Below are positions 27,111-63,439 of a stretch of DNA of 64,000 nt, in pieces. The notes below the pieces were generated by a model, which was not told where the DNA came from, did no database searches, and saw only the letters and a list, made by a program, of their open reading frames with translations. Location: IMG/VR virus record IMGVR_UViG_3300047160_009708. One strand, 5' to 3'. The translations under genes were made by a program, and so were the position numbers. The stretch comes from an uncultured virus (IMG/VR IMGVR_UViG_3300047160_009708) (taxonomy: Duplodnaviria; Heunggongvirae; Uroviricota; Caudoviricetes). Each line of letters opens with the position of its first letter. Position 1 is the stretch's first letter.

Positions 27111-29678
27111 TTAGTATCCAATCGCGACCGCCACCGCGTTCAGAGGTGGGTACGTCATATTGACGATCGATGATGGTAGTGACTGCGCTGGCACATCCAG
27201 CCACGCGTAGCTGATAAATGCCAGCGCCAGTTCGCCCTGGATGTTGTTGCCGTCGCCGTGTTCCGACCAACTGACGAGCGTACCGTCGGCCATCAGTCCA
27301 ATGTTGGAATTACCGGCGCCGCCCGTCGCGTATTTACTGCCACCCGGCGTGCTGTTCGTGGTCGGCGATGTGGCCGCGCTCCAGGTATTGCCGCTGTCGG
27401 TCGAGTATGTGAACGTGAAATCCTGCCGCGAGCCCGCCGTGTTATTGTTGTAGCTCTGCACGAGCAGTCCCTTGCCAGCCCCGGCGGGCGTGATTCCCAT
27501 GCTTATTAGGCCGACGGCCGTCTGCGCATTGTTGACCACGACCGTAGGTGAATAGACACTCCAGGTTACGCCGCGATCTGTTGATTTATAGAGCAAGATG
27601 GTGCTGCCGCCCGTGTTGGGACGGACCGCCGCCATGACCGAACCGTCCGCCAGTTCGGCCAGTGACGCGTCGGTGGCGCCGCCGCTAGACGACGCCTTGA
27701 TAATACCGCCTTGGAACCAGCTCGTACCATCGTCGGTGTAGAACGACGAGATCCCCGCCGTGGAGTTGCCAGTGCCAACCCCGAAGCCAAGCACGCCGAT
27801 GATGCGACCGGTCGAATGGTAAATGAGCCCGTTGCCCGACCCGGTTTGCAGTGAGCCCCACGTCCCCGTTTTGACCGCGACCGTGATGTTGGTCGGACCC
27901 GACCACGAGACGCCCTCGTTGTCGCTCGTGATCACCCAGATCGTGCCCGTGTTGCCACTCGTGCCCGCGACCGCGTTGGTGATGTTGAACGTCGGCGTGT
28001 AGCGTACGTAGACGCCCATGATGCGGCCGTAAGGACCAGTGCCCACACGCGGCATCCAGATGAAATTCATGTTCATCGCGATCGCCGCCGCGCCCTGCCA
28101 TTCATTGATCAGCGAGGTCGCGTTGCTACCGTCATTGAGAAGAATCGCCGGGTTGTCAATGAGCCACGCATTATCGTTTGGGATGAGCGTGATCATGACG
28201 TCGCGATTCGAGGTCGTCGTCGCCGTTAGCCGAGCCTCCCAGGCGATCACCGTGTAGTTAGCTGTAACCACGCACGCGGGTACGCGGTAAACGTTGTAAC
28301 CCGTGGCAACCGTACGCCCGAATTCGAGCGTGCGTGGTGAGTACGACGCCTGGAATCCCCACATGCGAGCGCCGGTCGTCGGTGTGTCGGCGCCGCTGGC
28401 GCGAAAGCCAACGAATCCCGTGTTCTTGATTGTGCCGTCGGTTGTCACCGCTGTTGCTGTCGTGATGTCCGGACCGGTAATGCTACCGATCACCGTGTTC
28501 GAGCTACCTGGTGTCACAATCCGTCGTGACATCTTGAGCACGTACGTGTTGCCCGGTGTGAGCGGACTGCTCAGATTCGTCGTAATCGTGCCGGTCGTCG
28601 CGCCATTGTTGCGAATGATCAATTCGATGCGCGGCGTACCTGAATTGTAATTGTATCGAAATAGGTACATATTATCTCTGTGCGGATCGCCGACCACGAA
28701 GATCCCCGGCAACGATGTGGTATTGGTCACGATCGTCAGGTTGATCTGGACGTCCTGGTCGTAGCCCGGCTGCACACCATCACTGACTAGCAAGCACATT
28801 CCATTCGTTGACGAACTGTAGACCGTGTTGACCACTGTGCCGCCAATCGATCGGTTATCAATCAGCAACGAGCCGCTAAAGACCGTGGAATGTGGTATCC
28901 ACGGACAGCCCTGGTCGGTCATCGTGTTCAGAACATTGGTGCCGCTGGAGTAGCCGCTGAAGTTCGCGGTTGAAAGCGGCGCGATCTGCCCCACCTGCGC
29001 CCACTCGAATAGAAAGTCATCGACCGCGATCAGGTCGCCAGTGCCCTGAGCGACCTGGAATGCCGGGACGCAGGTACCCGTAACCGAGCTATCGTACAGA
29101 TCGAAGATGGTCGTGAATGGACCAGCAACCCACGTTCCGGCTGAACTTAACCATTGCTTCGTGTCGAACCGCTGCAAACGCACCGTGATGTGGCTGCCGA
29201 CGCAGCGGATGGCCGCGCGCATAAACGTCGCGGTTGGGAATGCCGCGCCGAGTGAGACTGTCGAGCCAAGCTGTGTCGATACACCACTCACGAACGCGAA
29301 TAGTTTCACCGTGCCCGCATTGCAGTCGAAGAGCCCCTGATAGTACGTGTCACTGCCACCGATCTGCACGCAGCGACCGAGGATCGCGAACTGGGGCGCA
29401 GTCGTCGCCGTCACAAACTGAAACACACAGAATTCCTGCATGTCCGCAAACGTGCCGCTAGGCCACACCAGATCGTTGTAGACGCCGACGAGACTGCCTG
29501 TCGTGTCGTTGCTCTGGATTGAGTTGGCGCCCGAGTACGAATTCGCCGCCTTGCAGATCAGCGACCCCGAGTTGGTGTCCCACCAGTTGCGCTTGCTGTT
29601 GATCGGACTATTGACGGTGAACCCACCGGTGGAGGTGTAGTCCCAGTTTTCCGAGATGACATAGGTCGGTGTTAGCAT
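27111..29678 (-). CDS. Tail spike-like protein: two lectin-like domains plus an Asp-box (BNR) sialidase-like beta-propeller
   Basis: YRVPA (FRIP-like), WEAR, Asp-boxes SDNEGVSW, YTDDGTSW, STDRGVTW, STDSGNTW. Confidence 0.8.
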   Translation of the reverse strand: MLTPTYVISENWDYTSTGGFTVNSPINSKRNWWDTNSGSLICKAANSYSGANSIQSNDTTGSLVGVYNDLVWPSGTFADMQEFCVFQFVTATTAPQFAILGRCVQIGGSDTYYQGLFDCNAGTVKLFAFVSGVSTQLGSTVSLGAAFPTATFMRAAIRCVGSHITVRLQRFDTKQWLSSAGTWVAGPFTTIFDLYDSSVTGTCVPAFQVAQGTGDLIAVDDFLFEWAQVGQIAPLSTANFSGYSSGTNVLNTMTDQGCPWIPHSTVFSGSLLIDNRSIGGTVVNTVYSSSTNGMCLLVSDGVQPGYDQDVQINLTIVTNTTSLPGIFVVGDPHRDNMYLFRYNYNSGTPRIELIIRNNGATTGTITTNLSSPLTPGNTYVLKMSRRIVTPGSSNTVIGSITGPDITTATAVTTDGTIKNTGFVGFRASGADTPTTGARMWGFQASYSPRTLEFGRTVATGYNVYRVPACVVTANYTVIAWEARLTATTTSNRDVMITLIPNDNAWLIDNPAILLNDGSNATSLINEWQGAAAIAMNMNFIWMPRVGTGPYGRIMGVYVRYTPTFNITNAVAGTSGNTGTIWVITSDNEGVSWSGPTNITVAVKTGTWGSLQTGSGNGLIYHSTGRIIGVLGFGVGTGNSTAGISSFYTDDGTSWFQGGIIKASSSGGATDASLAELADGSVMAAVRPNTGGSTILLYKSTDRGVTWSVYSPTVVVNNAQTAVGLISMGITPAGAGKGLLVQSYNNNTAGSRQDFTFTYSTDSGNTWSAATSPTTNSTPGGSKYATGGAGNSNIGLMADGTLVSWSEHGDGNNIQGELALAFISYAWLDVPAQSLPSSIVNMTYPPLNAVAVAIGY

Positions 29679-44477: not shown

Positions 44478-45023
44478 TTAGCCTATGGCTGCGGACCCGC
44501 GTGGAATACCGAGCACGTACGGCGCCCGAATCCCCCAGGAGCGCGTGTTGCGCGTGATCAGGTTGAGCCGGTCGATCTCTTCCTGCGTGTAGAACGAGTC
44601 GTAGGCGATACCCGCCGCCGCCGCTTCCGCGAACGGCAAAATGCCCATGCCGCTGCCAAGCGCCTTAAGCCATTGCTGCGCCTCCTGCGCCTCGGGCAAT
44701 GCCGCCGCGTCCGGGAATCGCCGGTGGTAGAGCCGATCGGCCGCGATCGAGCACACCATGTCCTTCAGGAATTCGGCACCGTTGCCGGTCAGGGCCGCCA
44801 AATCCTGTGGCGTGTACCGCTGCCCAGCAACGCAGGCCATCTCCACGATCCCCGACGCCGTGGCCAGCGCTGAGCGCAGATTGGGGTCGGTCTGTAAATC
44901 GATGCTCGTGCTCTGGCCGTTGTCGTCGCGCACGAGCCAGCCTTGCAGCCGCACGTCGAACCGGGCGATCATGTCGTTCGGCGTCGCGTACGGATTGAGC
45001 CCGCTAATCGAGGTTTGCGGCAT
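44478..45023 (-). CDS. Head-tail connector, Mu gp36/DUF1320-like
   Basis: YATPNDMIARF...ALATASGIV...RYTP...L.DMVCSIA...LY.RR...AQQWLKAL..G; directly after the major capsid gene. Confidence 0.8.
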   Translation of the reverse strand: MPQTSISGLNPYATPNDMIARFDVRLQGWLVRDDNGQSTSIDLQTDPNLRSALATASGIVEMACVAGQRYTPQDLAALTGNGAEFLKDMVCSIAADRLYHRRFPDAAALPEAQEAQQWLKALGSGMGILPFAEAAAAGIAYDSFYTQEEIDRLNLITRNTRSWGIRAPYVLGIPRGSAAIG

Positions 45024-49015: not shown

Positions 49016-49157
49016 GCGGCCGGTCGAAGTCGTCGAGGTCGTCCTCGATCACGATCTCGCCGCGCTTGACGCACGCCAAGAGATTGGCCAGGCAGCAGTC
49101 CATCTCCCGCCGTTCCATCTCGGTATACGCGCTTACGAGTGAGTCCTTGCGTTTCAT
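48945..49157 (-). CDS. Small protein coupled to the polyprotein stop; candidate partner of the zeta-like domain
   Basis: ATGA overlap at 49154-49157; acidic stretch IEDDLDDFD. Confidence 0.55.
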   Translation of the reverse strand: MKRKDSLVSAYTEMERREMDCCLANLLACVKRGEIVIEDDLDDFDRPPKRARSSGSGRRSNRPARPGPRQ

Positions 49158-52100
49158 GGGCAACCCCCGCGCCCGCCCTTGTCCATCACCTTCGGCGCCG
49201 TGCCGAACGGGACGTCGTTGTCGAGCATGGTGTAGCAGTCCACCAAACCGCTCGCCTTGAGCGCCTGGTACGACTTCTCAGGACCGCCATTCATCAACGC
49301 AATCAAACCGGGTGGCACAAATCGCCCCAACTCTTGATGTAACTCTTGAGGATCGGAATAGCCGAATGCGTTCGCGGCGAATCGATTCCAGGCGCGGCTT
49401 GCATTCTTATACACGGGAAAGTTCACGTTGATCATGTGTAATTCGTAGCCAGCCTTGGCAAAGGCTTTTGCTTGTTTCATCATCGCATTGGGATCGCTAC
49501 CGGCGATGTCCATGATGATGTTGTGCCGGTTCTTGATCGCTCGCTTCATGATCGGTCCATACGTCAGCATGATGGATTCCGAGTGCAGGACATCGCCATT
49601 CCAGCCTTCGTATTCCGGGAACCGCGCGCGAATGTCATCGGAACTGATGGTTGTGAAACCGACGCCCAGCTTATGCGCCAGTGGCACGCCCACGGTCGTC
49701 TTGCCCGAACCGGGTCGGCCCATCATGAACACCACGATCGGCTTCTGGCCTGGCCGCGCCTTGGCGTCGGGATTGAGCGTCAATTGCAAGATACGCTTGT
49801 GCTCCTTCTTGCGATCGTTGGTCCATTTCAGCTTGCGGTAGGCATTGCGCCAGTCCGGGCTGTTGATGACCTTGGCCACGTCGGTGCCCGGCTGCGTGTG
49901 CTGGAAGACGGACCAGGACGAGCCCAGACCACCCGGTGCCGCCTTCTCGATCTGGTCCAGCTTGACCTTAAGCTGCTGATAGAGCGGCGTCGCCTCGACG
50001 TCCCGCACATAACGGTCAAGATCCCGCATGTCGGTCGCGGGCTTGATGGGCTTGGTGGCGGCTGCGGCCTGGCGATCGTCGGCGGTGACGTGCGTCGGCA
50101 AGGGCGCTTCGGAGATGCCTCGGAAGTACGCGCGCGTCTTGCCGAACGCGGACCGGGTTTCCTCACGCGTGCCCGTGCCCGGCCCTTGCTCAACCTGGGC
50201 GCGCTCGGCGGGCGTGGCGCGCTCCAGCGCTTCGGCGGGAATGAACTCGCCGCCCGTGAACCGCTTGCCGCCGATCGATACGCCGCCTGCGGGCGCATGG
50301 TGGACAGCGTAGCGCACGACCGGCCGATGCGCGCGCCCGTGCAGCACGCGCCGCAGCTTATCCCAGACCGTCTCGGGCACCGCGCGGCCGTGCCGGACTA
50401 GCGCTTGGGCTTCCGCTTGTCGTCGCGCGTAACGGGCCTTCCAGTCATAATCCCAAACGCTTCGCCCTCCCTGGTCACGTCCTTCGCCGGGCGGTACCCA
50501 GCGCGGCGCGTTCGGGTGGGATCGTTCGTACTCGGCGATGAAGGCTTCGTACTTGCGGTAGGCTTCTTCGCGGGTTGACGCCCCTGTGGGGAAGAATTCT
50601 CCGTGGCCACGACGCACCTCCGGTTGAATGTGGTACTGCTTCGCAACAGCGTGAACCTTGTCGCCCAGCTCGGACCCTTGATCGAACAGATAAACACGCG
50701 TGCCCTGGTCGGTTTCCTGCAAGGTCCGGAACGCGATCCCCTGCCGGTCCAGGCTCTTGCGCACCGACTCGGGATCGGCGGGCAGATCGAGGGTCCATAG
50801 CGAGTCTTTACCGCCTGGAGACGATAAGAACGGAATCACCGCCCACTGCTTGGCAATCCGACCCTTGATCGCCAGGGCATACTTCAACGTATCAAAATCC
50901 GTGACGTTCTCATAACGCGTGATGCTCGACGGCTCGGCGCCCGCTGTCTCACCCGCCGGTGCCCAGTCGCCGATGACGGTGACTGTCGTCCCCCTCAGCC
51001 CCAACTTCCGATCAATATCGCTCGATAGCTTGATCCACTTGTGTTGCACTTCGCCCTTGGCGCGCTTCCTGGCTTCGCGGTAGTCCAGGCCCGACTCGAC
51101 TTCGGGCGACACGAACCCCTCGGCCTCGGGTTGCGGGGCGCGCGGCTTGCTGGCCGCCGCGCCGTTGCCCTTGACCCTGGCAAATTCCCCTTTGTTTTCA
51201 GGCTGGCCGCGAGGGTGCTTTTCCGCGTCCCAGGCATAGCGCACGCGCTCCTGACGCGGCAGCAGCACACGCGCCAGACGCGCGTACACGTTCGAACGCA
51301 TATAGCGTTCCTTACCTTCGCCCTCGCTTGGCTTGGACTCGTCCAGCTCCTTGATCTTCGATTCCCAGCTTTTGATGTTGCGTTCGATCGTTTCGATGTC
51401 GCGCGGGCTTAACTCCTCCCGGATGTACGGGCGCGTGCCGCCACCGTGAATCCGGTACCCGGCCTTGATGTCCACCTTGCCCTTGCGAATCGCGAATTCC
51501 AGCTTCTCCTTGTGGTTGGCGATCCACGCCTTGGTCCCCATCATGTCGGTCATCTGCTTCATCATGTCGCGGACCGTATCGCCCTTGGTCTTGGTCCACC
51601 GGCTGATCACCGCGTCGGATGTGGACACGTCCTCATATTTACCATTGACGCTCCACCGCTTGACCGGATCGGGGTCGATCTTGCTGACAATCTTCTCGAA
51701 CTGCTTCTTGAGGTCGGCCTGCTTGGGGTCGGGATAGTTGGGCATCCCCTCCTTGAACCGCGCCAGCACCGCCTGCGCGTCGCGCACGAACTGGCGGTTC
51801 TCGGCCCAGACCGTTTCCTTGGCCACCCGCTCGCCGCTCTTGCCCTCGGCCTGAAAGTGGGTCACGCACTCCGAGCCGACCGGCAAGGTCCACTTTTTGT
51901 CATCATTCTGCAAGTGGTAGACATTCTTGATACTGGTGCCGCACAGCCCGCACGTACCACCCTCGCTGCCGCCGCCCTCATGCTTGTAGAGCGTTGGCGC
52001 TTCGCTGTACCCCTCGGGCATGTTGAACGTCGGCATCATGCGCGGCTGGCCGCGATCGTCCTCGGTCTCCGTCATGCCGGTGATTTCCACCGCCTTCCAC

Positions 52101-55100
52101 TCGTCCTCGCGCGTGCCCATGTGCTCCAGATTCTTGCGCACCGCCTCGGCATACTTCAGCTTGCCGCCCGCCGCCTTCTTGGCCTTCTTGGCCGGTTTCG
52201 CCTTGGCTTCAGCCGTGCCTTCCGCTTCGATCTTGGCCCGCTCCTCGGGGGTCGCCTGCGCCATCACCTCGGACGTGATGAACTCGCCGCCCGGATAAAA
52301 CTTGCCCCCGATCTCGACGCCGCCCTTGGGCGCGTGCTTTGCTTCATAACGCACACGCTGCACGTCGCCGTAGATAACCCTGTGCAGCCGCGCCCAGATT
52401 GAACTGCGGGCATACCGCATGCGAGGATTCCCACTGTCAAACGTGCCGATGTTATCGACCGCCTTCACCTGGCCGGGGTCAAACGCGATCCACACGCGGT
52501 GGCTGCGCGTGCCCATGTTGGCGCCGCCGATGTGCGTGATGCCGTCGTAACCGGCCTGCTTGATCAGATAGTTGGCGCCCTGCTTGCCCGCGATCTGCTC
52601 CAGCGCGAAGTACACGTCGTCACCGTTGGGCGCGCCGCGCGTGCGCGCGGCTTGTCTCAACTGATTGAGCGCGGTTTGTGCGCCCTTACGTATCTCGCGC
52701 TCGTCCGTTTCGTGCCCGCTGAAGTAGGACTTGCCCGCCGCCGCCCGAAACTCGGTCAAACCCTTGCCACGCGCCAGCGGCTCCACCAGCGCGCGGAGCG
52801 GATCGATGTCGATCGTCCCGTCCACGCGGAACGGTCGGCGAATGTTGAGGTACGACGCGTACAAGTGGCCTTCCACCTTGATCCCCGCCTGCCGCGCCAC
52901 TTCGGGGACATTGATGTTGTAAGGCTGAGCGCTGAGCGTCTCGTCAATTAAGTCATAGGACCAATGTGAGCCCTTGGGATCGCGGAATGCATCGATCATC
53001 TTCTGAGCATGTTCACGCTCGGTATCGCTCAGGTAGCCGCGCGATAACCGGGCCAGCGCGCTGCTGAGCGCCTCGCCCAACTTATCCTTGTCCGCCGGTG
53101 CCAGCTTGATGCCCTTCTGCGTGTAGCCGCGCTGCTTCAAGCGCTTCTCCAGGCCGGTCGAGCCCATCCACTTGCCGGTCTGACTGTCCTGATACGGCGG
53201 CCACAGCGTTTTGGTCGCCGCCCTGGCCTCCTCCTCGGTGCCAAACTCGCTCCACACCGGCACCTGCTCCCAGTCGCCTGCCGCAATCCCTTTGTCCTCG
53301 GTGTGGTAGAAGCCAGGCCCGTACAGGTTGACGCCGCTGTCGATCTTGGGATCGAATGCCTCGAAGAGCGCCTGGCTACCGTGGTAGGCCAGAATCGGCT
53401 TGCCGGTATTCTCGTCGCGCACGACCGAGGCTTCGACGTTGTACGTGTCCTTCGGTTCGCCGGTCTTGGGATGCACGACCTTCGATGCGTCCACCGGATT
53501 GTGTACCCAGTCGCCGAACCAGTTCGTGAACTCGGGCGAGCGCGTGCCCAGCTTGCGGTAGTCGCGCTCGGCCTGCATGCGCTGCGCGCGGGCCTGACCG
53601 GCCTCGCTCAGCGCCTTCGTGGGCGCCTTGCCCGCATGACGGCTCGCTGGCGGCTGCGCGGCCTGCTGGCCGCCGCGCTCGACCGCCGCGCGCTCCTCGG
53701 GCGTCGCCTGGGCCATGACCTCGGACGGAATGAACTCGCCGCCGGGGAAGAAACGACCGGCAACCTGCACGCCGCCCTTGGGCGCGTGCCTTGCTTCATA
53801 ACGCACCAGCCTGGCCAGCCGCGCGTACACCGACCGCTTAACGGTTGAGCTTCTGGTCCCAGATGCGATCGAGGATTTTTTCGTCCTCGGGCGAGATGTC
53901 CGGCTCCTCGTAACGGTGCTCCCGATGCCCCTCCCGTACCGGCTTGTGCTTGCCTCGGTCGGGTACGCCGCCGCGTGAATCGCCGGATTGGTCACGCCCT
54001 CTTTGTGCAGGAGGTACGCGTCCAGCGTCTTGAGACTGAGGCTGCCCGGCTTCATGTCGAACGTCATCTCTCTGCTGTCGCCGTTGATTTCCCACCAGTC
54101 CCTCCCTTCTTGAGTTGCCATCAGGTCGCTAACACGTTTCGCACCTTTAAGGTCGTCCGGTAGGCGCTTGATATCCCAACTAGAGAAGGTATCATCATAA
54201 CCCATCTTGGGCCAAACCTTGTAGCCGACCATCGGATGATTGGGGTCGTCGTCGCGCGCCGCGACCGTCTCGATTTCCTCAATCCCCAGCTTCATCGCCT
54301 CCTCGACCTCGTGCGCGAAGACCGTATGACCCATCCCCTTGCGCTTCAGGTCAGGGTCCTCAATGAAGAATTCGTCATTATGTAATATGAGAGTACCAGC
54401 ATACTGCGAGTCAAGCGTGCGCTTCATTTTCCAGCTTGGCGCGCCGCGATAATCGGTGGGGCTATGCGCCTCGATGACAATCGCACCGAAGAGTCCTTCG
54501 CTTAGCTGGACAGTCGCGTCATCGGGCGCGCCGATCAGGGTCGGCAGGTCAGCGGCGGTGATCGGCAGCTTCAATTGCTTCAGCTTGTCCTCGATGCGCC
54601 CCTTGTCCCCGGACACGATCCGGCCCTTGCTCTTGTACTTGCCTGCGGGCTTAGCTGTCGCTGGCGGCTCAGCGGTCGCCGTCGCGCCCCCCTTGCCTTT
54701 CTCGATAAACTCACCCTTGTTCTCAGGCTGCCCGCGCGGGTGCAGCTCCGACTGCCAGGCGCGGGCGTAGCGCAGCAGCTTGGCCCGCCACGGATTGCGA
54801 CGGTTGCGCTCGAAGCCCGGCATGAGCATCTGGCCGGGCGCGTCGCGCCGCACGCCGTGCTCCTTGTTCCATTGCTTGATATACTCATTTAATGTCTTGC
54901 GGCTCTCACTATCCGGACGCGTGTCGAATTCCAGGTCGATGTTGCTGCCGTGCTCCTCCCACCACTCGCGACCGCCCGGCGTCTTGTACAACTGGCTGAT
55001 CATGATGGTGTCGTCGTTGCCGGGAAAGTCGCTCTTGTAGTGGACCCAGTCCGGTAGCTCGCCGTCGAACCCCAGCTTGGGCCAAACCTTGTAGCCGATC

Positions 55101-56563
55101 ATGAACGCGGACCGCGCGGCGGTTGTCGTGATCTTGCCGATCCCCGCGTTCCACGCCTCCTCGACCTCGTGCGCCAGCACGGTGTGACCCAGGCCCTTAC
55201 CCTGCGCGCTGCGGTCGTTGATGAAGAATCCCGCGTTATGGATAAAAAGATCGCCATCGTCATCGTGTTGAATCTCGCGATCCATAGTCCAAACGCTCCG
55301 TGTCGCGCCTTTGGGCGTTTGGTACGTCGCGGTACTCACCGCCGAGATGCCGATCTCGTCGTAGTTCGCGCTGATGTCCACCGTGGCGTCATCGGGGATT
55401 CCCAGCAGCGTCGGCAGGTCGTCGATGGGGATGTCAAGGTTATTATTCTCAAGCCAATCGCGGACCTCCTCATCATCCACCGATTTGATCTTGGCCTTGC
55501 TCTTGTACGTGCCGGGCTTGTCCCGCTTTTCGAGCTTCTCGGGCCACGGCGCGCCCTTGGTGGATTCCTTGGGCTGCGCTTGGGGCTTCTCCTTGGGCTT
55601 CTCCTTCGTGGCCGTCGTGCTGCCCGTGCCCCTGACGACGAACTGCCCTTTGTTCTTGGGCTGACCACGCGGGTGTAGCTCACTCTTCCATTCGCTCTTG
55701 TAACGCGTGCGCTCCTGCTCATACTCTACCCGGTTGTCTTTTGTGCTAAACGTGCCCTGGTTTAGTGTGGATTTCACCTGATTCGGATCGAATGCAATCC
55801 ACGAATCCTCCGCGCCGTACTTGCGGTATATCTCATCAGGCACGTCGCGATCGAGGAATCGTGCCCAGATCGGATCGCGATGCAGCGCGTCGAAATCAAT
55901 CTTGCCCTCACCGCGATTGGTGTAAACCACACCGTCATAGCCAGCACCACGAATCAGGGATTGGAGCGTCTGGTTCGACCACTTATGAAAATTGTCTTGA
56001 TCGTTGAATTCTATATGCTCCGCTTTGTCGCTCAATCCTGGCGGTATTTTGATCCCCAGCTTTTCGAGTTGTCCAGCGACGTCGCGGAAACGCCAAAAAC
56101 CCGCGTCGCGCAAACGCAGCGGATTCTCAATCCGCGCGTACAGCGGCATGATATGCTCATCGCCTGCTGCGGACGCATCCGGCCCCACGAATTGCTCGGC
56201 CTGCGCTTCAGTGCCCACATGTAAGCCCAAATCACCGACGTCCGGGTCCATCGTGCTCCAGTCGCCGCGCTTGGTGCCGTGGTAGACGACCATCGGCTTG
56301 CCCTGGGCATCGACCACCTTCGACTTGCCGAACCAGCGACGAAATTCCGGTGTGTCCGTGCGCGACTTACGGGCAGGCGCCGGCTTGTCTTTCACCGCAA
56401 CACCGCTACCGCTCTTGCCGTTGGCTTTAACGAATTCTCCCTTGTTGGCAGGCTGACCACGCGGGTGCAATTCCGATTTCCACTCACTCTTGTAGCGCGC
56501 GCGCTCGCGCCCGTAGAGCATGCGCGCCAGGCGACCGTAGATCGAGCCGGGGGCACTCGACAC
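49154..56563 (-). CDS. Large polyvalent protein: ART-like, GNAT-like, GNAT-like, ART-like, Zn-binding, unknown, zeta-toxin-like P-loop kinase
   Basis: FRRWFG..VYHGT..GYDG..WIAFDPNQVK (twice, second copy variant); GKGLG/RKGMG..AAR..GYKVWPK(L/M)G (twice); CGLCG..VGSEC; GRPGSGKTT..SSDDIR..IIMD. Confidence 0.85.
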   Translation of the reverse strand: MSSAPGSIYGRLARMLYGRERARYKSEWKSELHPRGQPANKGEFVKANGKSGSGVAVKDKPAPARKSRTDTPEFRRWFGKSKVVDAQGKPMVVYHGTKRGDWSTMDPDVGDLGLHVGTEAQAEQFVGPDASAAGDEHIMPLYARIENPLRLRDAGFWRFRDVAGQLEKLGIKIPPGLSDKAEHIEFNDQDNFHKWSNQTLQSLIRGAGYDGVVYTNRGEGKIDFDALHRDPIWARFLDRDVPDEIYRKYGAEDSWIAFDPNQVKSTLNQGTFSTKDNRVEYEQERTRYKSEWKSELHPRGQPKNKGQFVVRGTGSTTATKEKPKEKPQAQPKESTKGAPWPEKLEKRDKPGTYKSKAKIKSVDDEEVRDWLENNNLDIPIDDLPTLLGIPDDATVDISANYDEIGISAVSTATYQTPKGATRSVWTMDREIQHDDDGDLFIHNAGFFINDRSAQGKGLGHTVLAHEVEEAWNAGIGKITTTAARSAFMIGYKVWPKLGFDGELPDWVHYKSDFPGNDDTIMISQLYKTPGGREWWEEHGSNIDLEFDTRPDSESRKTLNEYIKQWNKEHGVRRDAPGQMLMPGFERNRRNPWRAKLLRYARAWQSELHPRGQPENKGEFIEKGKGGATATAEPPATAKPAGKYKSKGRIVSGDKGRIEDKLKQLKLPITAADLPTLIGAPDDATVQLSEGLFGAIVIEAHSPTDYRGAPSWKMKRTLDSQYAGTLILHNDEFFIEDPDLKRKGMGHTVFAHEVEEAMKLGIEEIETVAARDDDPNHPMVGYKVWPKMGYDDTFSSWDIKRLPDDLKGAKRVSDLMATQEGRDWWEINGDSREMTFDMKPGSLSLKTLDAYLLHKEGVTNPAIHAAAYPTEASTSRYGRGIGSTVTRSRTSRPRTKKSSIASGTRSSTVKRSVYARLARLVRYEARHAPKGGVQVAGRFFPGGEFIPSEVMAQATPEERAAVERGGQQAAQPPASRHAGKAPTKALSEAGQARAQRMQAERDYRKLGTRSPEFTNWFGDWVHNPVDASKVVHPKTGEPKDTYNVEASVVRDENTGKPILAYHGSQALFEAFDPKIDSGVNLYGPGFYHTEDKGIAAGDWEQVPVWSEFGTEEEARAATKTLWPPYQDSQTGKWMGSTGLEKRLKQRGYTQKGIKLAPADKDKLGEALSSALARLSRGYLSDTEREHAQKMIDAFRDPKGSHWSYDLIDETLSAQPYNINVPEVARQAGIKVEGHLYASYLNIRRPFRVDGTIDIDPLRALVEPLARGKGLTEFRAAAGKSYFSGHETDEREIRKGAQTALNQLRQAARTRGAPNGDDVYFALEQIAGKQGANYLIKQAGYDGITHIGGANMGTRSHRVWIAFDPGQVKAVDNIGTFDSGNPRMRYARSSIWARLHRVIYGDVQRVRYEAKHAPKGGVEIGGKFYPGGEFITSEVMAQATPEERAKIEAEGTAEAKAKPAKKAKKAAGGKLKYAEAVRKNLEHMGTREDEWKAVEITGMTETEDDRGQPRMMPTFNMPEGYSEAPTLYKHEGGGSEGGTCGLCGTSIKNVYHLQNDDKKWTLPVGSECVTHFQAEGKSGERVAKETVWAENRQFVRDAQAVLARFKEGMPNYPDPKQADLKKQFEKIVSKIDPDPVKRWSVNGKYEDVSTSDAVISRWTKTKGDTVRDMMKQMTDMMGTKAWIANHKEKLEFAIRKGKVDIKAGYRIHGGGTRPYIREELSPRDIETIERNIKSWESKIKELDESKPSEGEGKERYMRSNVYARLARVLLPRQERVRYAWDAEKHPRGQPENKGEFARVKGNGAAASKPRAPQPEAEGFVSPEVESGLDYREARKRAKGEVQHKWIKLSSDIDRKLGLRGTTVTVIGDWAPAGETAGAEPSSITRYENVTDFDTLKYALAIKGRIAKQWAVIPFLSSPGGKDSLWTLDLPADPESVRKSLDRQGIAFRTLQETDQGTRVYLFDQGSELGDKVHAVAKQYHIQPEVRRGHGEFFPTGASTREEAYRKYEAFIAEYERSHPNAPRWVPPGEGRDQGGRSVWDYDWKARYARRQAEAQALVRHGRAVPETVWDKLRRVLHGRAHRPVVRYAVHHAPAGGVSIGGKRFTGGEFIPAEALERATPAERAQVEQGPGTGTREETRSAFGKTRAYFRGISEAPLPTHVTADDRQAAAATKPIKPATDMRDLDRYVRDVEATPLYQQLKVKLDQIEKAAPGGLGSSWSVFQHTQPGTDVAKVINSPDWRNAYRKLKWTNDRKKEHKRILQLTLNPDAKARPGQKPIVVFMMGRPGSGKTTVGVPLAHKLGVGFTTISSDDIRARFPEYEGWNGDVLHSESIMLTYGPIMKRAIKNRHNIIMDIAGSDPNAMMKQAKAFAKAGYELHMINVNFPVYKNASRAWNRFAANAFGYSDPQELHQELGRFVPPGLIALMNGGPEKSYQALKASGLVDCYTMLDNDVPFGTAPKVMDKGGRGGCP

Positions 56564-56610
56564 TTACGCGCTCTCGTCCTGCATCAACTTGGTAAACAGC
56601 CGCGTCGGCA

Positions 56611-56823
56611 TCACGACCATCCCGCCAGCTTGAACGCGTCCAGACACTCGTCCGAACACACCGGGATCAGCCTCGGTCGGCCCGCGCCCCCTAACCGCCA
56701 CGTCGTATCACATCCACATGTGTGACAGGGCTCATGATCGTTCACGCGCCGCAGAAACTCATGCTGATGTAAGTCGATCACGTCCGTGTAGTTGGCGTCC
56801 GGGTACCGGTCGTCGAACTTCAC
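56611..56823 (-). CDS. Small zinc-finger-like protein
   Basis: CHTCG...VCSDEC; GTGA-coupled to 56820. Confidence 0.55.
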   Translation of the reverse strand: MKFDDRYPDANYTDVIDLHQHEFLRRVNDHEPCHTCGCDTTWRLGGAGRPRLIPVCSDECLDAFKLAGWS

Positions 56824-57095
56824 CGCTCGTTCTCGCGCGCCATCTTCGCAATGATCTTCTCGACCGCCGCCAGTTGCTTCTTGCTCTCGGGCGTCGATGG
56901 CTGCGGGTCGGGATACTTCAGCTTCACACGCTTCTCACCGGCCGGACGCACGTCGCCACCCAAGAGCAGCGTGCGCAGCTCACCGATCGCCCGCTCGCGC
57001 GTGAACCCGAACAGCTTTTGGAGCGCGGTCACGTCGTCCTCGGTGAACTTGCCGTCAGGCTGCGCCTTGAGGAATTTCATGCCTTCTTGATCCAC
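56820..57095 (-). CDS. Small 'MDQE' protein, paralogous to the N-terminus of 57077-58225
   Basis: MDQEGMKF..QPDGKFTE....L.K.FG.TRERAI.EL.TL..GGDVR; overlaps the upstream gene by 19 nt. Confidence 0.75.
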   Translation of the reverse strand: MDQEGMKFLKAQPDGKFTEDDVTALQKLFGFTRERAIGELRTLLLGGDVRPAGEKRVKLKYPDPQPSTPESKKQLAAVEKIIAKMARENER

Positions 57096-58225
57096 CCCAG
57101 TTTCATGAACATGCCATCAATCGCCTTGGCGATCGGTGCGAACTCGCGATCCGACCATTGGCCAGCCGTATAGAGCGGTTGGTGCCTCGCTTGGGTGTCC
57201 CGCCGGTAGTCGTTGACGTTTTTCATAATCGCCTCGTCGTGGGCGCGGGTGCCGACCCACTGCCCGAACGCGCGCGCCCACACTTCCGACTTCCTGGCCA
57301 TGTAGTCAATGTAGCGGTGAATCCACGCGTTGGTCAAAGTCACCGGTCCTCCCACGTCCATACGTGCCTTAGCCTTCATCAGATCCTTATACATGCGCGT
57401 CTTCTCAATCGCCGCGAACACCGGCGCGAAGTAGGGGTCGTGGTCATAGTCGCGATCGGGATGGTGCGGTGCCAGATTGACGCCCGGCACACCCACGCCA
57501 TCAAGCCAGTGACCGGTCTCGTGCGCGATCGCCAGGTAGGTCAGCCTGGAAAACGAATTGATCTCCAGGCTACTGCACGAGCCGTCATCCTTGAAGTAGG
57601 TGACCCCCTCATCGCCGGGCTGGCCCAGGAATTCCTTGACCTGGATCGGCGCCAGCTTGCCGTCCGACATAATGCTATCAATGGATTTATATGTCTTCTC
57701 GAACGCGGCGCGCTTGTCCTCCACGCTTTGGTCATACTTCACCATCGAGGACACCTTGGTCCCCTCGCCCGGCTGCACATGCACGTCCGCGACCGGACGC
57801 GCCACGCGCGGTCGGCGCGGCGGCTTGGGCGCTTCGGTCGGCGTCGGCGTCTCGGCTGGCTTGGCCGGTGTGGGCTCGGGCGCCGCTGCGGGTTTGGGCT
57901 CGACCGGTCGGGGCGCCTCTACGAGCTTGTGGCCGTTGCCCTTATCCGGCACCTTGGCGAACTCGCCCGCGTTCTCAGGCTGGCCCCTCGGGTGCTTCTG
58001 CTCGTCCCACCCCGACCGCGCGTACCGCTCTTTCGCTTGCGCCTTGGGCGGGAACGTTTCGCCCTTCCTGAGATAACGGACGTCGCCACCCTCGAACAGC
58101 GTCATCAACTCACGCACCGCGCGCGCACGCGACCAACCGAATCGCTTCATGATCTCCCGAATGCCCTTTTCGGTCGGCTTCCGGCCCGGTTGTGGCTGCG
58201 CGTACTTCACGGTTTCTTGATCCAC
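57077..58225 (-). CDS. MDQE domain + HPRG peptide + HExxH metallopeptidase-like domain
   Basis: ERYARSGWDEQKHPRGQPENAGEF; AHETGHWLD; EVWARAFGQW; paralogous to the portal C-terminus. Confidence 0.8.
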   Translation of the reverse strand: MDQETVKYAQPQPGRKPTEKGIREIMKRFGWSRARAVRELMTLFEGGDVRYLRKGETFPPKAQAKERYARSGWDEQKHPRGQPENAGEFAKVPDKGNGHKLVEAPRPVEPKPAAAPEPTPAKPAETPTPTEAPKPPRRPRVARPVADVHVQPGEGTKVSSMVKYDQSVEDKRAAFEKTYKSIDSIMSDGKLAPIQVKEFLGQPGDEGVTYFKDDGSCSSLEINSFSRLTYLAIAHETGHWLDGVGVPGVNLAPHHPDRDYDHDPYFAPVFAAIEKTRMYKDLMKAKARMDVGGPVTLTNAWIHRYIDYMARKSEVWARAFGQWVGTRAHDEAIMKNVNDYRRDTQARHQPLYTAGQWSDREFAPIAKAIDGMFMKLGWIKKA

Positions 58226-60924
58226 CCTAACTTCGTGAACATGGCATCAATCGCCTTGCCGATCGGCGCGAAATCCTCGTCCTGCCACTGGTCGGCAAGG
58301 TCGGGATTGCCCGCGCCCGGCTCGGGCTTCCAGGCGCGGTAGACGTTCAGATCCTTCATCATATCACGATCACGGCTGCGTGTCGCCACCCACTGCGCAT
58401 ACGCCCGCGCCCATACCTCGTGCGGCGCCAGCAGATAATCGACAAACCCCCCGAGATCATCCTGGCCGCCGCGCCCCTCCGCTTGCAGGTCGCGCCGCGC
58501 TTGATGAAGCGACTTGTACGCTTGCGACGCCTTCAAGGCCGCGAACACACCCTTAAAGTGTTCGTCGTGGTCGTAGTCGCGATTCTTGCCCATCTCGGTC
58601 CGGCCACCCGGTATGCCCACCGCGTCCAGCCAGTGCCCGCTCTCGTGCGCGACCGTCAACAGGGGATAATCCATTTTCGTGCTGAACATAATGCCGACCA
58701 CGTTGTCGTCGTTGTCGAAAACCGTCGCACCGGCCGCGCTCGTGCCCGGTGGCGCCGAGCCGATCACGATCGGGTACAAGTCACCGTCAGACATCAAGTG
58801 ATCCATAATTTGATATGTCTGCTTCACTTCATCCGAGAATGGGAAGTGGGCGTCCAGATAGTAGCGCACCGCCTTCGAGATCGGCGCGCCCTTGCCGGGC
58901 CGGAACAGCGGCGTGCCCGCGTCGCGGTCGGCCTTGGGCTTGGGCGGCTTCGCAGTCGCCGTCATGGACGTCGCGGTCGGCCGCGATTCCTGAGTGGATG
59001 CGGGCTTCGTCGGCGCCTTGGGCTCGGCCTTCGGCTGGGCGCCCTTGCCGGTCGTGCCGCCCTGCCGGGGCGCGAACTCGCCCGCATTCTCAGGCTGACC
59101 GCGCGGGTGCTTCGTCTTGTCCCAGGTCGTCGCGGCGTACCGCACGCGCTCGTGCCGCTGGCGCTCGACCACGGGTGGCGGCGCGCCTTCGCCCTGCCGC
59201 GCGTAGGTCGGCGGTCGGCTCAGCACGCCACCGGTCGCGTTCGGGCCGGGCGCCGTCCCACGTCGCGGCGCCTGGCCACCGAGCGCCATCCCACCGCCCG
59301 CCGCGCCCGCACCATTGCCACCGCTGGCCGGATAGGCGGCCTCGCCACCTGCCTGCGCGGGCGCGCCCTGGCCGCCCGGCATCATGCCGCCGCCCATCAT
59401 CTGCTGCTGCTGTTGCATCTGCTGCTGCTGCACCGCCGCCATGATCCGCTGCGCCCGCACACCGAGCGCCTCGTCATCCTTCTTGGGCGACTTGAACCCG
59501 CCCAACTTGAGCACGTCCGCCTCGGCCAGCGTGCCGCCCATACCCACAATCAGCTGACCGGCCTGCAACCGCTCCAGCATGTTGGGCGTTTCCAGAATGC
59601 TCTTGAAGCGAATCTGGAACGGGAGTTCATATCCAGATAGGACCTGATCTCCATACCGCCAGTGATTGAGCCGAATCAGCGGACCCAAAAGCTGGTCCGT
59701 GATCGTCTCGTCCAGCGAGGTCGCGTCCGACCGAATGCGAATTGCCTCGACGTTGCCGCTGTACTCAATCGCCGACTCAGTGCGCGCGCCACCGGCACCC
59801 ATCACCATCGATTGCTCGTTGATCCCCAGGATGTCGTACTCAATGATCGAATCGAAGTATTGCACCCACTGGTCGAACACCGGATAAGCGGCGGCTGATG
59901 CCTCGATGTGATGAATGTTCGACTGCGGATCGCCCTGGCCCGGCTGCTTGGGCATCACGCCGACGTTGAAGTCCACGACATCCTTCACCGCCTGAATCAC
60001 CGCCTGGCGGTCGGCCATGTCGCCCGACTGATAGAAACCAATGAGCATACCATTCACACTCAAGCGCTGTAATGCGTTCATCGCCCAGGAGAGAACCTCG
60101 GTGCGAATCCACCACTGGTGATAGACGCGAGACCGCATGCCGATGCCGTAGATCGCGGCGGCCATGTCGGCCTCATACTGGAAATCGGTGTCGCGCGGTT
60201 CGAAGGTGTGGATGACGAACTGGTCGCGGTCGGCGGCGTCGGTGAGAAAGAGCGCCATGCCGCGATCGGCGAGTTGGATAAGCTCCGACTTGCCGAACGG
60301 GCGATAGTCCGGGAACACAAAGATGCCTGGGGTCCCGTCCCACTTCCAGACAATTTTGTCCCCTTGCAGGGGTACATGCTTCTTAACGACAACACGGGAT
60401 ACGCCATTGACCATCTTTCTGGTATAAACGACCTGCACGCCCGCCTTCCCGAAGAAGATCGCTTCCAGCAGCGAGTTGCGCAGGTCGTAGAAGCGCGGCG
60501 TCGCCTTCACCAGCCGCGTCACCTCCTCGGCGACCGCGATCTGGTACGGGTTCTCGGTGTCGTCCGGCTCTAGCTCCCAGTCGAGCGACGCCACCGGCAG
60601 CTTCCGCCGCGTCATCAACTTATCAATGAATGCGTCACGCCGACATGCGAGCGCATCCGTCCAGTTGACACGTGTCGCTTCGTCGAACCACGTCCGGAAC
60701 GTTTCGCTGACCGTGTTGTAGATCGCCGCCCATTGCTTCTCGGGCGAGATCACATAGCGGTCTAATTCCGGGATGCCCTGCTGATGCAGCCGCCGACCGG
60801 ACAGTAGCTCGGGGAGCGCCGAGTCGGGGATCGTGGACGCGACCTGACTGAGTATCTCAGCCACGCCCTCGATGGCGCTCTGGCCCAGGGTCGGTCGATT
60901 TTCAGGCTCGATGTCTTGCGTCAT
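58207..60924 (-). CDS. Portal protein (DUF935/Mu gp29-like) with a fused C-terminal HExxH domain
   Basis: RRKLPVASLDWELEP, LLEAIFFGKAGVQV, YGIGMRS, LDETITDQLLGPLIRLN; Q/G-rich linker; AHESGHWLD. Confidence 0.85.
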   Translation of the reverse strand: MTQDIEPENRPTLGQSAIEGVAEILSQVASTIPDSALPELLSGRRLHQQGIPELDRYVISPEKQWAAIYNTVSETFRTWFDEATRVNWTDALACRRDAFIDKLMTRRKLPVASLDWELEPDDTENPYQIAVAEEVTRLVKATPRFYDLRNSLLEAIFFGKAGVQVVYTRKMVNGVSRVVVKKHVPLQGDKIVWKWDGTPGIFVFPDYRPFGKSELIQLADRGMALFLTDAADRDQFVIHTFEPRDTDFQYEADMAAAIYGIGMRSRVYHQWWIRTEVLSWAMNALQRLSVNGMLIGFYQSGDMADRQAVIQAVKDVVDFNVGVMPKQPGQGDPQSNIHHIEASAAAYPVFDQWVQYFDSIIEYDILGINEQSMVMGAGGARTESAIEYSGNVEAIRIRSDATSLDETITDQLLGPLIRLNHWRYGDQVLSGYELPFQIRFKSILETPNMLERLQAGQLIVGMGGTLAEADVLKLGGFKSPKKDDEALGVRAQRIMAAVQQQQMQQQQQMMGGGMMPGGQGAPAQAGGEAAYPASGGNGAGAAGGGMALGGQAPRRGTAPGPNATGGVLSRPPTYARQGEGAPPPVVERQRHERVRYAATTWDKTKHPRGQPENAGEFAPRQGGTTGKGAQPKAEPKAPTKPASTQESRPTATSMTATAKPPKPKADRDAGTPLFRPGKGAPISKAVRYYLDAHFPFSDEVKQTYQIMDHLMSDGDLYPIVIGSAPPGTSAAGATVFDNDDNVVGIMFSTKMDYPLLTVAHESGHWLDAVGIPGGRTEMGKNRDYDHDEHFKGVFAALKASQAYKSLHQARRDLQAEGRGGQDDLGGFVDYLLAPHEVWARAYAQWVATRSRDRDMMKDLNVYRAWKPEPGAGNPDLADQWQDEDFAPIGKAIDAMFTKLGWIKKP

Positions 60925-62626: not shown

Positions 62627-62819
62627 CGTGGTCGTAGCGCTCCGCGTTGTCCACAAGGCATTGGTAGAAGACGCCCGATCCTTGTTCGGGGTTGGCCACG
62701 TAGTAGACGTCGTGCTGTTGAATCGATCCGGCCAGGTAGCCGACCGGCTCGAATAGCTCATCGGTGTTCGCGTCCGGGGACGCGACGGCCTCATGGATGT
62801 CGATCTCTTGATAATTCAT
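62607..62819 (-). CDS. Small acidic hypothetical protein
   Basis: ATGA-coupled to the KTSC gene; GGGAGG RBS. Confidence 0.55.
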   Translation of the reverse strand: MNYQEIDIHEAVASPDANTDELFEPVGYLAGSIQQHDVYYVANPEQGSGVFYQCLVDNAERYDHDGRPRW

Positions 62820-63439
62820 CGCTTGCCTCCCAAGAGCCGTCCCAGCCATTGCATGGCTCCTTGTTCGATCTTACCGAGCGTGGTCTGCGCCGTGGCGGTC
62901 GCTGGGCCGGGCGCGGTCGCATTGGTGGCGCGGGCCGCCGCCATGTCGCGGTCGCGCTGCAAGATGTTCCCCAGTCGGCCAGCGGGCAGCGGGCCGCCGA
63001 ACAGTTGTGGGTGATCGCGGCGGTAGGCCGCGTAGCCGCCGGGATAGGTCGCGGCGGGCGGCTCAGCGAGGAAGATTTTGGCGTCGGGGTTCGGTGGCTT
63101 GCCGCCCGGCCCGGACATTTTGCGGTAATTGATAATGCCCGCGCGACAACGGGGACGGAGCACATACCACACCCATTTGCCTTTGGATGAGGAGTTTTTG
63201 AAGTAATCCCAATCCTCGTTGGAAATGGGGTCATACTCATAAGCGGTGCCATTCTTGAACTCAATGCGCATGAAATGCCACTGCGGGTCGTAGCCGATCG
63301 CCGCCACGTTCGACGACTCGACCGGCATCATGTTGTACGTCGGACGCGTCGAGATATTGACATACGGTGGCGGGTCGATCTTGCCGCGCAGCCGCGCGTA
63401 GCGTTCGGGGATAAAGCAGTCGGACGTGCGCTCTTTCAT
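62816..63439 (-). CDS. KTSC domain protein
   Basis: PVESSNVAAIGYD....MRIEFKNGTAYEY......W..F..SSSKGKW. Confidence 0.88.
   Translation of the reverse strand: MKERTSDCFIPERYARLRGKIDPPPYVNISTRPTYNMMPVESSNVAAIGYDPQWHFMRIEFKNGTAYEYDPISNEDWDYFKNSSSKGKWVWYVLRPRCRAGIINYRKMSGPGGKPPNPDAKIFLAEPPAATYPGGYAAYRRDHPQLFGGPLPAGRLGNILQRDRDMAAARATNATAPGPATATAQTTLGKIEQGAMQWLGRLLGGKR

Follow-up and report, generated by a model that had tools for sequence, protein, structure and literature searches.

An uncultured phage of the class Caudoviricetes, represented by a stretch of 64,000 nucleotides (IMG/VR record IMGVR_UViG_3300047160_009708, the whole of which is here called the window), carries at the C-terminus of its portal protein a domain predicted to be a zinc metallopeptidase of the zincin type. 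The portal gene is followed at its stop codon by a small reading frame, and the unit formed by a linker, the HExxH peptidase domain and a small domain is present twice in tandem, with the first small domain (S1) fused to the second peptidase and the second (S2) standing free. Small open reading frames (ORFs) occupy the same position in related viral loci. We propose that their products are partners that bind the neighbouring peptidase and silence it; to this model, in which the binding step is inferred, we assign a rough probability of 0.5.

The cassette lies within a string of coupled genes running from 60924 down to 49154 on the minus strand, the strand of all window features given below. 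The portal gene (58207..60924, 905 residues) was identified through its Mu-type core at residues 94-429 (59638..60645; Pfam Portal_Mu, PF06074, E value 2e-32, 113 bits against a cut-off of 23.9) and through PHROG 113, the portal family. Past the core, a Gln/Gly/Ala-rich run, which reads as a flexible linker (about residues 495-570, 59215..59442), leads to ERVRYAATTWDKTKHPRGQPENAGEF, a Pro/Ala/Lys-rich run and a domain of 236 residues (HExxH domain 1, residues 670-905, 58210..58917). This domain contains AHESGHWLD (HESGH at 58636-58650) and HEVWARAY, and closes on KLGWIKKP. The original prediction had the portal ending in an HExxH domain behind a Q/G-rich linker, and all the features it described are present on the minus strand. 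The segment between linker and domain includes the first copy of a motif that we call the HPRG linker (RYAATTWDKTKHPRGQPENAGEF, 59074..59142); HPRGQPxNxGxF occurs six times in frame across the window.

The second gene (57077..58225) encodes 382 residues from a GTG at 58225, or 377 from a GTG at 58210, arranged as S1, HPRG linker, Pro/Ala-rich linker and HExxH domain 2. S1 spans 45-50 residues (MKYAQPQPGRKPTEKGIREIMKRFGWSRARAVRELMTLFEGGDVR, 58076..58210) and runs into ERYARSGWDEQKHPRGQPENAGEF, the second HPRG linker motif being RYARSGWDEQKHPRGQPENAGEF (57959..58027, repeat family D2). Behind the Pro/Ala-rich stretch, HExxH domain 2 (residues 150-382, 57080..57778) shows AHETGHWLD (HETGH at 57509-57523) and SEVWARAF, with KLGWIKKA at its C-terminus. 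S2 is encoded directly downstream (56820..57080) as a protein of 86 residues from an ATG at 57080, or of 91 residues from a GTG at 57095.

The two halves of this arrangement are paralogous at the protein level. The units of HPRG linker plus HExxH domain share 37% identity over 343 columns (BLASTP, E 7e-57), domain 1 showing the HExGH, Glu and Arg columns that are invariant in the family alignment, and S1 and S2 are 50% identical over 50 residues (E 1e-13). The predicted repeat unit, a linker-HExxH module followed by a small domain and occurring twice, is real, with one of the small domains fused to the second HExxH domain. At the DNA level there is no long repeat of high identity; since similarity is confined to short, diverged segments (the best are 74-79% alike over 52-93 nucleotides), the duplication is old. 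A further tandem pair of units, each an HPRG linker with a domain of about 250 residues, occurs in the neighbouring giant gene (53954-55711; 42% identity, E 2e-62). Because both the peptidase cassette and this unit are duplicated, linker-plus-domain duplication is a habit of this genome. The suggestion that the polyprotein grows by fusion holds as a description of duplicated linker-domain cassettes, but the order of events cannot be read from them.

The tandem form is peculiar to this phage among the loci compared. Each of 80 related viral loci contains a single peptidase ORF, the 382-residue protein is the only one of its kind among the matches found, and S1 was matched by no phmmer relative among the matches listed. 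A translated search (tblastn) with the 382-residue protein against 50,697 phage records returned two distant matches, both in Akkermansia phages, and no others, and a scan of viral contigs seeded with the portal confirmed no relatives among 137 pattern matches.

Fold and family of the HExxH domain

The structure of HExxH domain 2 was modelled with AlphaFold2 (predicted local distance difference test, pLDDT, 91.5; predicted template modelling score 0.91). The model comprises a helix at 17-36, strands at 45-50, 58-62 and 68-74, the HExxH helix at 80-96 and further helices, one of which bears the Glu ligand, so that the HExxH motif and the Glu both lie on helices. In a structure search independent of Foldseek, the best-scoring neighbours that were checked are zinc metallopeptidases, with the catalytic domain of anthrax lethal factor (Z 8.1, root mean square deviation 4.3, 151 residues aligned) in the top rows together with PPEP-2 and PPEP-3 (Z 7.5), and Zmp1, PepO and thermolysin after them. 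Foldseek itself gave nothing at E <= 0.001 against the PDB, its weak rows being mostly metalloproteinases, and a profile of the domain found, among the sequences of solved structures, only weak matches around the HExxH motif (best E 0.027).

Z values of about 8 are not decisive alone for a fold assignment. Here they combine with an alignment of 29 sequences (A1) in which HExGH, Glu165 and Arg169 of E(L/V)WAR, a Tyr, two Trp and a Phe are invariant, and on this combination of fold and catalytic residues both window domains are firmly predicted to be zincin-type zinc metallopeptidases.

The domain belongs to a large and conserved family. Among 1.84 billion representative proteins, phmmer found 1154 relatives at E <= 0.001 (250 at E <= 1e-10), and all of the matches listed hit the HExxH domain, except two giant proteins that matched the HPRG linker only. 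Of the 148 listed matches that bear the domain, 144 have no more than 10 residues between its end and the C-terminus, and 121 finish on Gly-Trp plus at most five residues. The domain typically begins near residue 266 in proteins of 450-650 residues. The Pfam model Phage_Mu_F was matched (E < 0.001) by 9 of the 28 relatives scanned, one of which (P0099) is a portal-MuF-HExxH fusion; another MuF-HExxH relative (P0028, 852 residues) has a weak intein-splicing match between its MuF and peptidase parts (E 7e-5, below the cut-off). The homologous gene is labelled 'head morphogenesis' in two Akkermansia phages, and the matching PHROG, 4529, is annotated as 'minor head protein and DNA pilot'.

MuF-type minor head proteins are portal-binding carrier proteins of phage heads. 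Judged from these sequences, the members of a large subgroup usually end in the HExxH domain. A polymorphic, variable toxin tip is not what the comparison shows, the domain being instead one conserved family. In the window the carrier is a different one: the MuF model (PF04233) has no Pfam match in the portal, in the 382-residue protein, in the giant protein or in the 29 other window ORFs.

The only Pfam match of the window HExxH domains is LPD1 (PF18796), over the last 70 residues and including the Glu ligand. Both copies score 17-23 bits, under the gathering threshold of 27 bits, and LPD1 is matched at E <= 1 by 26 of 29 family members (best E 5e-5), which indicates that the window domains are related to LPD1, yet not members by the Pfam cut-off. 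Weak matches to peptidase models (M78, M43, M13 and Zincin_1) occur in 10 of the 29 family members, with a best E value of 0.024.

A widespread clade of phage-type zincin peptidases has been described by Iyer (2017, PMC5512222), whose accessible text marks it by an Asp three residues past HExxH and a His that closes strand 2, and ranks zincin peptidases first in frequency among the domains of polyvalent proteins. The window domains share with these enzymes the HExxH helix, the Glu on a following helix, the three-stranded sheet, the N-terminal helix and the Asp (HWLD in both copies), as well as an LPD1 match in the C-terminal 70 residues and fusion to a virion protein (MuF or portal) beside giant multi-enzyme proteins. 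They differ in matching no Pfam peptidase model, in their sub-threshold LPD1 scores and in the strand-2 position. In the same text LPD1 is listed among 40 domains of unknown function, outside seven that are potentially enzymatic, whereas the LPD1 region of the window domains holds the predicted third zinc ligand of the peptidase. A 2026 preprint, in the part available, places LPD1 together with a 'MuF-C metallopeptidase' domain in a packaged protein of 2811 residues from phage phi24B.

The small gene at the stop codon

The partner gene was surveyed in the 80 viral loci encoding the HExxH domain, which gave 63 unique downstream ORFs after removal of duplicates. An ORF of at least 35 codons is found at the stop of the HExxH gene in all 80, starting between 26 nucleotides before and 23 nucleotides past the end of the stop codon, and 62 of the 63 unique ORFs encode 110 residues or fewer. 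The motif GD[VILMA] is present in 41 of the 63 (65%), against 9% of 4835 control windows of 60 residues from the same loci. Because no locus lacks such an ORF and most of the unique ORFs carry this motif, we regard the enzyme and its small partner as a conserved cassette. Moreover, the genes beyond the small one vary between loci (head protease, scaffold, neck protein, small terminase or ParB-methylase), which makes the peptidase the conserved link of the small gene. The observation named beforehand as telling against a pairing, that small homologs elsewhere would be unlinked to HExxH domains, was not made: the ORF is at the stop codon in every locus.

Searched against 11,592 six-frame segments, a hidden Markov model (HMM) iterated from one small ORF reached E < 0.001 in 34 of the 80 loci. 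Every one of these matches is on the strand of the HExxH gene; 32 overlap its stop codon and two start 192 nucleotides downstream. The consensus reads ...E..I..LM...G(M/L)S...A.F..A.E.GE..GDVI, followed by an acidic tail, and all 19 small-family sequences compared keep the Gly and Asp of GDV. Pfam assigned UBA matches to 2 of 19 members (best E 7.5e-5), and PHROG gave a match for just one of 21 small proteins, at E 0.006. Partner-like sequence also occurs in other contexts: two repeats lie within one protein of 88 residues (L019/L020, 4783-5046), and in L044 (4615-6117) a partner-like domain forms the N-terminus of a 500-residue protein without a recognised family.

The window domains S1 and S2 both close their second helix with GGDV, which in S1 reads FEGGDV. 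The model of S2 (pLDDT 72) has helices at 14-24 and 28-39 (pLDDT 81-88), then turns at GGDV and passes through a disordered stretch into a long C-terminal helix. Its structural neighbours, HypK, NAC, EF-Ts and the USP5 UBA domain, are weak (Z 3.2-4.0), and its look-alikes in the ESM Atlas score 0.81 at most, within the chance range. A two-sequence profile of S1 and S2 found the L030 partner (MKYSDEEIKEIMKIYGVDRAEAITILAIEHGDSDGDVI...) at E 0.007 among the six-frame segments, and comparison of S1/S2 with the small family by hhalign gave a probability of 49% (E 1.7e-4, 24 columns). Membership of S1 and S2 in the recurrent family is plausible on these comparisons, though borderline.

The start of the small genes was examined at both junctions of the window. 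The original prediction gave the small proteins an MDQE start and an overlap of 19 nucleotides with the preceding gene; this is true of the longest ORF at each junction, but both traits are by-products of the reading frame, MDQE being the conserved C-terminal codons GGG TGG ATC AAG AA (Gly-Trp-Ile-Lys-Lys) read one base back, as GG GTG GAT CAA GAA. Start and stop codons also overlap by four nucleotides, as GTGA at 58210-58207 between the portal and second genes (product MKYAQPQP...) and as ATGA at 57080-57077 between the second gene and S2 (product MKFLKAQP...). A public protein collection lists S2 in its 86-residue ATG form and the second gene in its 382-residue GTG form. In 49 of the 80 related loci, ATGA, GTGA or TTGA straddles the stop of the HExxH gene, and in many the Gly-Trp codons are GGATGG, which yields a second in-frame ATG 13 nucleotides upstream and N-termini such as MDQM or MAKM.

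Within the last 20 nucleotides of the HExxH genes (loci L001-L080), the Leu-Gly-Trp codons are usually (T/C)(T/A)(A/G)GG(A/G)TGG, a purine-rich run that resembles a ribosome-binding site and stands 8-10 nucleotides ahead of the ATGA of the small gene. On this reading, one set of bases may serve both as the C-terminal peptide motif and as the translation signal of the partner. A programmed -1 frameshift that would fuse the portal to S1 and peptidase 2 to S2 was considered and rejected on sequence reading alone; such joining is unlikely, because the overlaps, ATC AAG AAA CCG TGA and ATC AAG AAG GCA TGA, lack a slippery heptamer of the form X XXY YYZ.

Proposed role and alternative readings

The portal C-terminus faces the capsid interior, so a peptidase tethered to it would be taken into the head and could depart along with the DNA. 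With the MuF carrier absent, the enzyme would hang on the portal by its long flexible linker, up to twelve copies being held inside the capsid ready to exit with the DNA, as has been proposed for MuF-borne enzymes. Translational coupling would supply the small protein at a ratio of 1:1 with its cognate peptidase. The small protein, with a two-helix, UBA-like head followed by Gly-Asp-Val, would bind that peptidase and keep it inactive in the producing cell, acting as an immunity or latency factor, and may place its conserved Asp in the zinc site like a pro-peptide supplied in trans. The unit of linker-peptidase and small partner was duplicated long ago, and in its second copy the first partner became fused to the second peptidase through the HPRG linker that is standard between domains of this phage. 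The sequences and the model show the paralogy, the family membership, the fold with its catalytic residues, the placement of the domain at the C-terminus and the conserved stop-codon ORF; the binding and inhibition, the location inside the capsid, the ejection and the target of the peptidase are inferred.

Two precedents bear on the silencing step. The analogy with MuF toxins, drawn in the original prediction, stands in so far as small adjacent proteins are reported to bind and physically block the MuF toxins Bxa and Apk2 (Alexei 2024, PMC11699363), and fails in so far as the window domain is conserved rather than a variable tip. Of the MuF toxins, that paper in its accessible part names only Apk2 and Bxa as characterised, and neither of the two has peptidase activity as its function. 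The window shares with these systems (Jamet 2017; Apk2, Bxa) a C-terminal enzyme on a head-module carrier and a small ORF immediately downstream. It differs in using the portal itself, or else a tiny domain, as carrier in place of MuF, in having an enzyme from one conserved peptidase family instead of a variable tip, and in carrying the cassette in tandem with one partner fused to the next enzyme. The second precedent is the zymogen of astacin, in which, according to the available text of PMC9629494, the Asp of the pro-peptide sequence F-E-G-D-I replaces the catalytic water on the zinc. Both cases place Gly-Asp-(Ile/Val) by a zinc peptidase, S1 reading FEGGDV, but the astacin pro-peptide belongs to the chain of its enzyme and is cleaved off, whereas the window partner is a separate, translationally coupled protein. 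We offer this as an analogy and claim no homology.

Several observations weigh against the proposed silencing partner. GD[VILMA] is missing from 22 of the 63 unique downstream ORFs, and these ORFs are heterogeneous, one HMM family accounting for only 34 of the 80 loci; a second type is weakly related to the main family (hhalign probability 62%), and a third shares only a terminal GGD(V/L), with no other relation detected. The small-family HMM is not significant on the window domains (E 0.31 for S1 and 250 for S2), MAFFT leaves their GGDV unaligned with the GDV of the family, and word-index searches (near-length and longer-length) gave no S1 or S2 relative outside their own contig. On the side of the enzyme, no Pfam peptidase model matches either window domain even at E <= 10, and the strand-2 His of the published clade is replaced by Tyr or Arg. 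This His is also missing in the nearest homologs (P0003 and P0004), the mark being one taken from the published description. Furthermore, the small gene lies in a late head operon, so that it would not protect a lysogen as a classical immunity gene does.

The HExxH domains may instead be processing proteases that cut the phage polyproteins at the HPRG linkers, with the small protein as a regulator or a released module; the peptidase would thereby be freed from the portal and the giant protein of 2469 residues chopped into its enzymes. The motif RY...W....HPRGQPxN(A/K)G(E/Q)F occurs at domain boundaries in all six of its in-frame window copies, one directly upstream of each peptidase and four at boundaries of the giant protein. 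Peptidase domains have been proposed to process polyvalent proteins (Iyer 2017, PMC5512222, in the part available), and the structural neighbours PPEP-2 and PPEP-3 are titled Pro-Pro endopeptidases in the PDB, the window linkers being Pro/Ala-rich. However, motif and domain are not generally coupled: this HExxH domain lies within 2.5 kb of the HPRG motif in none of 152 viral stretches that contain the motif, and among 151 proteins, including the phmmer matches listed, the motif is carried only by the three window proteins and a single further giant protein. Head modules of the ordinary kind are present in the 80 related loci, and the constant small partner at the stop codon is left unexplained. 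We consider processing somewhat unlikely.

A second alternative takes the small domain as a loading adaptor, that is, as a tag that binds the peptidase without inhibiting it and recruits into the head cargo that lacks a MuF or portal domain. S1 would then dock peptidase 2 onto the portal-borne peptidase 1, and S2 would cap the chain. The 382-residue protein indeed has neither domain, although the family is otherwise MuF-carried, and its N-terminal S1 is the cognate downstream partner of the portal peptidase; the N-terminal partner-like domain in L044 would fit as well. Against this, the L044 protein is without a recognised family, and in most loci the partner is a free protein of 45-70 residues with nothing to load. 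We hold such an adaptor to be quite unlikely, and equally the more general idea that the GDV domain is a portable peptidase-binding tag building a self-extending cargo chain (peptidase 1-S1-peptidase 2-S2). Were the tag reading true, the thousands of pairs of MuF-peptidase and small ORF would form a general docking system that loads and silences capsid cargo, and duplication of the cassette followed by fusion would offer giant polyvalent proteins a way to grow.

Less probable again is a polymorphic toxin with classical immunity, used in bacterial competition, where a swappable toxic tip is paired with a small gene that protects lysogens or siblings; this is the model of Jamet (2017) and corresponds to the effector-immunity reading of the original prediction. 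In the accessible text of Jamet (2017, PMC5576092), metallopeptidase domains are present in 20% of 191 MuF toxins and small ORFs follow 89% of the 191, and the giant protein next to the cassette has ART and zeta-toxin-like domains. The enzyme here, however, is a single conserved family with a conserved C-terminus and more than 1000 representatives, no MuF domain was found, and the small gene is translationally coupled within a late head operon, so that no expression from a prophage is expected. Finally, that the small ORFs are unrelated fillers or non-coding frames, placed by operon compaction beside a peptidase that acts alone, is highly improbable: they are short, acidic, heterogeneous in type and mostly without a Pfam or PHROG family, but S1 and S2 are clear protein paralogs despite their diverged DNA, one HMM family stands at the stop codon of 34 loci, GD[VILMA] is enriched from 9% to 65%, and S1 reads on in frame, uninterrupted by a stop, into a conserved domain.

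The reading of a peptidase silenced by its partner gives the pair a wider interest, as enzymes linked to MuF or to portals are held to enter the cell together with the phage DNA. The commonest C-terminal domain of MuF proteins that is still uncharacterised is, by a confident prediction, a zincin peptidase, its second half being Pfam LPD1, and the coupled Gly-Asp partner would be, as a concrete hypothesis that is cheap to test, its inhibitor or a pro-peptide in trans. The partner-peptidase 2 fusion behind a portal bearing peptidase 1 is a natural experiment on cognate versus non-cognate pairing, and if the partner binds, the pair could serve phage engineering as a tag for capsid loading or enzyme silencing. 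Head-module-borne enzymes with a small partner are of a kind already known. The portal-MuF-HExxH relative (P0099, 888 residues) likewise ends in the same peptidase domain with an LGWIK C-terminus, but has MuF between portal and peptidase and a portal of the Phage_portal (PF04860) type, where the window portal is of the PF06074 type and has no MuF. Within a limited literature search, the direct portal fusion without MuF and the tandem duplication with a partner-peptidase fusion appear new, as does the small partner as a recurrent family with a Gly-Asp motif; the domain tables of Jamet (2017) and Iyer (2017) may include the domain or the small ORF.

Linkers and neighbouring genes

The HPRG motif is found in at least 152 viral stretches, often several times per contig (eight or more copies in some) and followed by Gly/Ser-rich linkers. 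It may be a cleavage site, a packaging signal or a hinge. In the form (D/E).(W/F).E(S/G).HPRGQPxNxGxF with a Gly/Ser-rich run it is widespread in giant phage ORFs of IMG/VR (loci L081 onwards). Neither the Pfam scans nor the literature examined gave a name for it, and the linker peptide of 39 residues had no tblastn match in cultured phages. A second inter-domain linker, (V)RYEA.HAP.GGV..GG..F.GGEFI.SE....ATPEER, occurs three times (50190-50317, 52227-52354 and 53679-53806), its copies being 69-80% alike in DNA; a (V/I)(Y/W).RL.R helix precedes each, as with the HPRG linkers.

Downstream of S2, the same gene string continues with a Cys-rich ORF of 70 residues (56611..56823), which overlaps S2 through GTGA and shows CHTCGC...C..EC with a weak zinc-ribbon match (E 0.004, below the cut-off). 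A mini-frame of 16 codons (56564-56614) separates it from the giant gene, its TAA directly preceding the GTG start of the latter. The giant polyvalent protein (49154..56563, 2469 residues), which bears the four further HPRG linkers, has ART-PolyVal in three stretches (E 1e-24), a C-terminal Zeta_toxin/AAA_33 kinase-like domain (Zeta_toxin, E 2e-17) and several other domains. It sits where Mu has its MuF gene, and is likely to be co-packaged cargo.

The remaining large ORFs of the window are mostly without a Pfam or PHROG match, which points to a very divergent phage. Other genes that could be assigned, all on the minus strand, encode a protein with BNR/sialidase-like repeats (27111-29678, E 9e-14), a head-tail connector like Mu gp36 (44478-45023, E 9e-6) and a KTSC-domain protein (62816-63439, E 2e-12).

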